Source: Escherichia coli (GTDB lineage: Bacteria > Pseudomonadota > Gammaproteobacteria > Enterobacterales > Enterobacteriaceae). From it: a stretch of DNA of 64,000 nt. Within the stretch, counting starts at the first letter, position 1; every line of letters starts with the position of its first letter. The translations under genes and the position numbers were made by a program. Shown here in pieces: positions 353 through 1,342 of the stretch. The DNA is taken from assembly GCF_024700885.2 (NCBI RefSeq), contig NZ_CP117016.1; one strand, written 5' to 3'. The notes beneath the pieces are model-generated. The model ran no database searches, was not told where the DNA came from, and was given only the letters and a program-made list of their open reading frames with translations.

Positions 353-1186
353 ATGGATAATGCTGTTGATCGCCACGTTTTTTATATTTCTGATGGTACG
401 GCAATAACTGCGGAGGTATTAGGACACGCAGTAATGTCACAATTTCCCGTCACTATCAGCAGCATTACGCTGCCGTTTGTCGAAAATGAGAGCCGTGCAC
501 GGGCAGTGAAGGATCAGATTGACGCAATTTATCACCAGACAGGTGTGCGCCCGCTGGTCTTCTACTCCATCGTGTTGCCGGAGATTCGCGCCATCATCTT
601 GCAAAGTGAGGGCTTTTGCCAGGATATCGTTCAGGCGCTGGTTGCCCCGCTACAACAAGAGATGAAACTGGATCCCACGCCGATTGCTCATCGTACCCAT
701 GGCCTTAACCCTAATAATCTCAATAAATATGATGCGCGCATTGCTGCGATTGATTACACCCTCGCCCACGATGATGGCATTTCGTTACGCAATCTGGACC
801 AGGCTCAGGTGATCCTGCTCGGCGTTTCTCGCTGTGGTAAAACCCCCACCAGTCTGTATCTGGCAATGCAATTTGGTATCCGCGCGGCAAACTACCCCTT
901 TATTGCCGACGATATGGATAATCTTGTGCTACCCGCGTCGCTCAAACCGCTTCAGCATAAATTGTTCGGCCTGACTATCGACCCGGAACGTCTGGCGGCG
1001 ATTCGCGAGGAACGTCGGGAGAACAGTCGCTATGCCTCGCTTCGTCAGTGCAGGATGGAAGTCGCGGAAGTGGAAGCGTTGTACCGTAAAAATCAGATCC
1101 CGTGGATTAACAGTACCAATTATTCGGTAGAAGAGATTGCCACCAAGATCCTCGATATCATGGGCCTTAGCCGCCGAATGTACTAG
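353..1186 (+). CDS. ppsR: PEP synthetase regulatory protein (bifunctional kinase/pyrophosphorylase)
   Basis: 277-aa ORF with P-loop-like GVSRCGKT; recognised PpsR/YdiA sequence and K-12 synteny. Confidence 0.9.
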
Positions 1187-1200
1187 AGAACTAGTGCATT
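1179..1200 (+). promoter_or_regulatory. Candidate TrpR operator of aroH (TGTACTAGAGAACTAGTGCATT)
   Basis: Tandem CTAG-containing half sites resembling the trp operator; overlaps the ppsR stop codon, about 140 bp upstream of aroH. Confidence 0.5.
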
Positions 1201-1342
1201 AGCTTATTTTTTTGTTATCATGCTAACCACCCGGCGAGGTGTGACACACCTCGCACTTGAAATCAGCTGCGATTGGTTTATCGTGATGCGCATCACTTCC
1301 CGGTAGTCCTGCCGTAGAAGCAACAAATTTCTGAGACTTGTA

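Follow-up and report, generated by a model that had tools for sequence, protein, structure and literature searches.

The stretch of E. coli DNA that was analysed (64,000 nt, hereafter the window) carries ppsA-ppsR-aroH of E. coli. The gene ppsR, which encodes the PEP synthetase regulatory kinase/phosphorylase, occupies positions 353 to 1186 of the + strand (277 aa, C-terminus ...RRMY followed by the stop codon). Its end, at 1178-1186, reads ATG TAC TAG and comprises the Met codon (1178-1180), the Tyr codon (1181-1183) and the stop codon TAG (1184-1186). The regulated gene, aroH, lies downstream on the same strand (1343-2389, 348 aa) and encodes the tryptophan-sensitive DAHP synthase. The names ppsR and aroH are those of RefSeq, with 100% identity in many E. 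coli genomes, including K-12 MG1655 (b1703 and b1704). The strain of the window and K-12 are only a few SNPs apart, and the operator described below is the same in both. A junction query of 601 bases found matches in 5,423 of the 5,426 complete E. coli genomes. The ppsR-aroH junction also had two matches on plasmid-classed records, for example NZ_CP074995.1 (166,865 bp), which are probably chromosome fragments or mis-assigned replicons. In the transcription start site (TSS) table of Kim et al. (2012), which describes MG1655 in mid-log growth on M9 glucose with enrichment of 5'-triphosphate ends, ppsR starts at window positions 323 and 328, that is, with leaders of 25-30 nt. With 7-8 TSS reads, as compared with 414 for aroH, ppsR was transcribed far more weakly than aroH under these conditions.

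The initial annotation had placed a TrpR operator of aroH at 1179-1200, with its beginning inside the last codons of ppsR. Both statements proved correct: the coordinates are exact, with 1179-1200 reading TGTACTAGAGAACTAGTGCATT, and the left CTAG (1183-1186) ends with the stop codon TAG at 1184-1186. The operator core, GTACTAGAGAACTAGTGC (GTACTAG-AGAA-CTAGTGC), extends from 1180 to 1197, with no strand assigned, and is defined by a unique exact pattern match, identity to K-12 and conservation of the half-sites. Three ppsR codons contribute to its left half-site, 1180-1186: ATG (Met) with its final base, and TAC (Tyr) and TAG (stop) in full. The core is part of an extended dyad, AATGTACTAG-AGAA-CTAGTGCATT (1177-1200, likewise without a strand), an inverted repeat of 10 pairs in which 9 of the 10 positions are symmetric. 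The CTAG half-sites had been described as tandem. Two CTAGs are indeed present, as at the trp operator, but they are the cores of an inverted repeat rather than tandem copies.

The strict pattern GNACTAGNNNNCTAGTNC (GNACTAG-N4-CTAGTNC) has a single exact match in the 64 kb and none in 100 dinucleotide-preserving shuffles, and the looser core GNACT-N8-AGTNC also finds the site at 1180-1197 as its sole match in the window. CTAG is the rarest tetranucleotide of the window, with 12 occurrences observed versus 249 expected from the base composition, a 20-fold under-representation. The two CTAGs at 1183 and 1191, with their spacing of 8 bp, are the sole pair in the window not more than 30 bp apart. 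Taken together, the match to the core pattern, the identity to K-12, the layout shared with the trp operator and the conservation across genera described below bear out the assignment of the site as the TrpR operator of aroH.

Within E. coli, the operator region hardly varies. Of 5,422 E. coli genomes, no fewer than 4,747 are identical over 1175-1200, a lower bound obtained by megablast, which needs a 28-base exact word; in addition, 18 sequences that span the whole range of identities were sampled. The variants found include G1188A in the central N4 (145 genomes) and A1198G just outside the core (81 genomes); further haplotypes carry changes in 1199-1207, between the operator and the -10 element, and the synonymous change C1174T. 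The half-sites GTACTAG and CTAGTGC were free of variation in all 18 sampled E. coli/Escherichia sequences.

To follow the site beyond E. coli, species-representative genomes were scanned for AroH, which yielded 80 loci ranging from Escherichia to Vibrio and Aeromonas. Every one of the 53 Enterobacterales loci has ppsR immediately upstream of aroH, an arrangement that is missing from all of the Vibrio, Photobacterium and Aeromonas loci. An overlapping operator that starts four bases before the ppsR stop codon (ATG TAC TAx NNNN CTAGTAC) was found at 22 loci of Enterobacteriaceae, in genera that include Escherichia, Citrobacter, Enterobacter, Lelliottia, Pseudocitrobacter and Pluralibacter as well as Cedecea, Shimwellia, Siccibacter, Phytobacter and Mangrovibacter. 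In the alignment of the 22 Enterobacteriaceae sequences, ATGTACT on the coding side and CTAGT on the non-coding side are invariant; the central four bases and the downstream spacer vary freely. Such a site is missing from the aroH loci of Yersinia, Serratia, Rahnella, Erwinia, Pantoea, Proteus, Providencia, Photorhabdus and Xenorhabdus, and the loci of Vibrio, Photobacterium and Aeromonas showed nothing resembling a TrpR site upstream of aroH. This taxonomic spread agrees with RegPrecise. In a comparative genomics study (PMC5343134), aroH was listed as a negatively regulated TrpR target, and the interaction of TrpR with aroH was confined to a few closely related Enterobacteriales.

In lineages without the site (Yersinia, Serratia, Erwinia, Proteus and others), PpsR still ends with Met-Tyr or Met-Phe, and ATGTACTxA is already present in the operator-less loci of Erwinia, Rouxiella and Enterobacter sp. 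BIGb0383. The presence of ATGTACTxA where there is no operator points to the left half-site as the older, coding sequence, so that only the right half would have had to arise. At two loci (L019 and L038) the operator is displaced, lying 20 or 205 bp downstream of the ppsR stop codon.

Two other configurations were observed outside of this group. In Hafnia and Edwardsiella (three loci: L028, L052, L055), a sequence GTACTAG-N4-AAAGTAC lies 61-126 bp past the ppsR stop codon, without any overlap with ppsR, and about 134 bp upstream of aroH, which suggests that aroH of the Hafniaceae is under the control of TrpR via a separately placed operator. In Budvicia (L039 and L044), GTACTAGTTCAAGAGTAT starts four bases before the ppsR stop codon, as in the Enterobacteriaceae. 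It has a degenerate right half and is followed by no suitably spaced -10 element, and may be a weak or vestigial site.

The overlap has a counterpart in the codons at the end of ppsR. The Tyr codon is TAC in all 22 loci with an overlapping operator versus 7 of the 13 other loci that end with Tyr, the remaining 6 of which have TAT (Fisher p = 0.001). Where the operator overlaps ppsR, 21 of the 22 loci end the gene with TAA or TAG, compared with 16 of 30 elsewhere (p = 0.001). Neither test corrects for the shared ancestry of the loci, and both results are no more than suggestive. In most genera the stop codon is TAA, which results in the left half GTACTAA; in this sample, the TAG that completes the second CTAG was found in Escherichia, Citrobacter youngae and an unclassified Enterobacteriaceae metagenome-assembled genome (L026). 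These biases are suggestive of a constraint that the operator overlap would impose on the choice of the synonymous Tyr codon and of the stop codon. With its Met-Tyr-stop codons supplying half of a repressor site across the Enterobacteriaceae, ppsR would be a clean natural case of a coding sequence constrained by regulation.

For aroH, a putative promoter next to the operator, P1, and a second promoter farther downstream, P2, can be discerned. P1 has a putative -35 element, AGTGCA (1193-1198, + strand), which lies inside the right operator half, matches the consensus at 3 of 6 positions and is separated by 17 bp from the hexamer TATCAT (1216-1221). This hexamer belongs to a putative extended -10 element, TGtTATCAT (1213-1221, + strand), with a predicted start near 1228. 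A hexamer TANNNT begins 15-20 nt past the operator in 21 of 27 loci, as opposed to a background of 14% at random positions of the same spacers, and in the displaced loci L019 and L038 the hexamer moves together with the operator. Since the spacing is kept even when the operator is displaced, the operator and the -10 element behave as one unit. The conserved arrangement fits repression by occlusion of P1, in agreement with the classical description of the site. The TG of the extended -10 element is confined to Escherichia and Citrobacter in the alignment of 22 sequences. A consensus promoter scan did not call P1, because its -35 element is poor. Prototrophs growing in M9 keep TrpR largely active. 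The M9 glucose table of Kim et al. (2012) contains no aroH start near 1228, and such a start may have been missed in this medium because TrpR was largely active or because P1 is weak.

The only promoter called by the consensus scan, P2 (1257-1284, + strand), consists of TTGAAA (1257-1262) and TATCGT (1279-1284) with a 16-bp spacer. It fits the mapped start of aroH, A1292 (+ strand, 414 reads; Kim et al., 2012), which implies a 5' UTR of 51 nt. The table of Kim et al. is the only genome-wide TSS table found to include aroH, and it lists this single start; the 50 nt that it gives upstream are the same as window 1242-1292, except for a strain SNP at 1270 (A in K-12, T in the window). The P2 motif, TTGAxx-16-TAnnGT, recurs in 42 of the 53 Enterobacterales loci, always with the 16-bp spacer and also in families without the TrpR site. 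Because it extends to families that lack the site, P2 appears to be the ancestral promoter of aroH. The simplest reading of this distribution is that P2 is older than the TrpR site and that the Enterobacteriaceae added the TrpR-controlled P1 upstream of it.

The centre of the operator is located at -103.5 relative to A1292. Because the mapped start thus lies about 104 bp past the operator, the operator most likely controls a separate promoter upstream. TrpR probably controls only P1 and not all aroH transcription, with P2 outside of its reach. TrpR repression of aroH is only modest, and, if the two-promoter model is true, the escape of P2 from TrpR would explain this. For the engineering of strains with an altered shikimate pathway, the model would further mean that deletion of trpR or of the operator leaves the main aroH promoter untouched.

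The region around P2 contains additional elements. A perfect palindrome, GTGAT-GCGC-ATCAC (1283-1296), overlaps the -10 element and the start of P2 and is unique in the window (0.04 expected). Across the families of Enterobacterales its arms are invariant and its centre is variable. Its sequence conforms to the CRP consensus core, GTGA-N6-TCAC, and several genera have a second copy about 48 bp upstream. The palindrome could be a putative operator for an unrecorded factor. In the aroH 5' UTR of 51 nt, a conserved leader hairpin, CTTCC-CGGyAG-..-CTGCCG-..-GAAG (1297-1320), shows two compensatory pairs across genera (E. albertii and Shimwellia); a search of 1100-1400 against Rfam returned no family. 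Between P1 and P2, there is a perfect 10+10 inverted repeat, GCGAGGTGTG-A-CACACCTCGC (1234-1254). It was considered as a conserved element and discarded, as few genera besides Escherichia, Enterobacter and Lelliottia keep a strong hairpin at this position, and its sequence differs among them.

How else could a palindrome at the end of ppsR be explained? Were it a chance palindrome without a regulatory role, a match of lower quality would not be surprising, given that 0.75 chance matches per window are expected when two mismatches are permitted. It is for this reason that the exactness of the match matters: the site fits the pattern exactly, which none of the 100 shuffles did, and it uses the rarest tetranucleotide of the window twice. 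Moreover, it lies upstream of a gene of the tryptophan pathway, is kept in non-coding DNA across genera and is the same as the K-12 sequence of a documented TrpR target. The conservation data effectively refute coincidence, to which we give hardly any credence. A role primarily as the intrinsic terminator of ppsR, with the likeness to a TrpR site being secondary or, in a milder form, with both roles combined, deserves more consideration but is also unlikely. A terminator scan flags 1177-1200 followed by AGCTTATTTT; folded as RNA, 1177-1200 has a free energy of -13.7 kcal/mol (z = -3.3), and its extended stem runs straight into UUAUUUUUUU; and the ppsR-aroH spacer offers no other obvious candidate for a terminator. 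However, the stem of 10-12 pairs is AT-rich (3 G-C pairs of 10), and the combination of a strong hairpin and a U tract is found only in Escherichia and Citrobacter, whereas in the remaining genera, which still keep the operator, the hairpins are at about -6 kcal/mol and a U tract is missing. The right arm is conserved as sequence, with CTAGT invariant and no compensatory pairs in the predicted stem, as would be expected for a protein-binding site rather than for a stem. In addition, among the Term-seq entries of Adams et al. (2021) that were consulted, which may be an incomplete set, none is a sense-strand 3' end of the weakly expressed ppsR; the only 3' end there is an antisense one inside ppsR. 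A terminator was therefore rejected as the main explanation, on the grounds that hairpin and U tract are not conserved and compensatory changes are lacking. In Escherichia and Citrobacter, the palindrome and the U tract may additionally terminate ppsR transcripts.

A third possibility gives the overlap itself a function. TrpR bound to the last ppsR codons would act as a roadblock for RNA polymerase, leading to a ppsR mRNA without a stop codon and to a tmRNA-tagged, degraded product, a scenario that we regard as quite improbable. Its consequences, a fall in PpsR at high tryptophan and a block of read-through into aroH, are just as doubtful. The architecture of lacI and lacO3 is alike, the lacI stop codon being inside O3, as was checked in K-12. 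The operator-over-stop arrangement is conserved across the Enterobacteriaceae, which would be in line with a function of the overlap, but this conservation is fully explained by the role of the operator at the aroH promoter together with the conserved C-terminus of PpsR. The weak transcription of ppsR also speaks against a roadblock, as do the two loci in which the operator lies off the stop codon while the operator-promoter unit is retained. TrpR-operator complexes are short-lived compared with those of LacI, which likewise counts against it. According to the review PMC3985003, SsrA tags are added to LacI (Abo et al., 2000), and binding of CcpA at cre sites in coding regions was proposed to induce trans-translation (Fujihara et al., 2002). 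A functional overlap, in which TrpR would block transcription of ppsR in the way described for LacI at lacO3, is an analogy that we consider to have only a slim chance of being correct. If it did hold, tryptophan sufficiency would lower both AroH and the regulator of PEP synthetase, the enzyme that makes the AroH substrate PEP. In its statement that ppsR termination and aroH repression share the same bases, the initial annotation was right in the physical sense, but nothing shows an interaction that would amount to functional coupling. Sharing does not imply coupling, since the bases have separate readers: the ppsR stop codon is read in the mRNA, and the aroH operator is read in duplex DNA.

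By far the most probable explanation is the classical aroH operator, at which tryptophan-loaded TrpR would repress the operator-proximal promoter P1, with the left half-site supplied by ppsR codons and P2 located downstream. In the presence of L-tryptophan, dimers of TrpR, which is encoded elsewhere in the genome, would bind to GTACTAG-N4-CTAGTGC. The right operator half coincides with the position of the putative sigma-70 -35 element of P1, so that bound TrpR would exclude RNA polymerase from P1 and thereby lower the transcription of aroH. P2, with its start at A1292, would remain downstream of the operator and outside of TrpR control. The ppsR-aroH spacer appears to be so compact that the operator begins inside ppsR. 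The sequence match, the overlap, the conservation, the codon biases, the fixed distance from operator to -10 element and, from a published table, the start of P2 are observations; the binding of TrpR and the resulting repression, the exact start of P1 and P2 being independent of TrpR are inferred or belong to general background. That the operator overlaps the ppsR stop codon is best explained by genome compaction and the reuse of existing coding bases, not by a new mechanism.

The site at 1180-1197 is the classical, long-known aroH operator, and its identification as such is not new. It was reportedly located at the -35 region of the aroH promoter by Zurawski (1981), Grove and Gunsalus (1987), Kumamoto (1987) and Klig (1988). 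A full-text literature search found no discussion of its overlap with ppsR. A tryptophan-dependent footprint of TrpR on the aroH operator has reportedly been obtained by Kumamoto, Klig and their colleagues, and the primary source on trpR-dependent repression of aroH in vivo is Grove and Gunsalus (1987). As the operator is a textbook site, the modestly useful addition is the comparative picture of a repressor half-site supplied by upstream codons. It is joined by an architecture in which a TrpR-controlled promoter would lie upstream of an older, order-wide promoter that supplies the mapped aroH start.

The closest known system is the operator of the trp operon, the prototype of TrpR sites, which shares with aroH the repressor, the co-repressor and the logic of blocking RNA polymerase. 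In K-12, the trp operator upstream of trpL, GAACTAGTTAACTAGTAC, has the same CTAG-N4-CTAG arrangement with 8-bp spacing and the same palindrome GNACT-N8-AGTNC, and 14 of its 18 bases are identical to those of the aroH operator. The two sites differ in their placement. The trp operator is 35-43 bp away from trpL, on its upstream side, and covers the -10/start region. At aroH, 160 bp separate the operator from the ATG, and the site coincides with the -35 position of a putative upstream promoter. Only at aroH is there a second promoter downstream of the operator, and only at aroH does the operator overlap a coding sequence. Repression is reportedly several-fold at aroH versus hundreds-fold at trp, according to Klig and co-workers. 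Among the TrpR sites of E. coli (trp, aroH, trpR, mtr and aroL), two full CTAG cores occur only at trp and aroH: aroL, another member of the TrpR regulon, has a single GTACTAG half-site upstream in K-12, and the K-12 regions upstream of trpR and mtr contain no exact CTAG.

With respect to the overlap, the lac system offers the nearest likeness. In K-12, lacO3 (GGCAGTGAGCGCAACGCAATT) spans the TGA stop codon of lacI, so that both loci have the stop codon of an upstream, co-oriented gene embedded in an operator that serves the next promoter. However, roadblock-dependent SsrA tagging has been shown for LacI (Abo et al., 2000, as cited in PMC3985003), whereas TrpR is not known to act as a roadblock at ppsR-aroH. 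The binding proteins differ as well: O3 overlaps the gene of its own repressor, whereas TrpR is unrelated to ppsR. Finally, lacO3 is an auxiliary operator that participates in looping to O1, whereas the operator at the end of ppsR is the primary operator of aroH.
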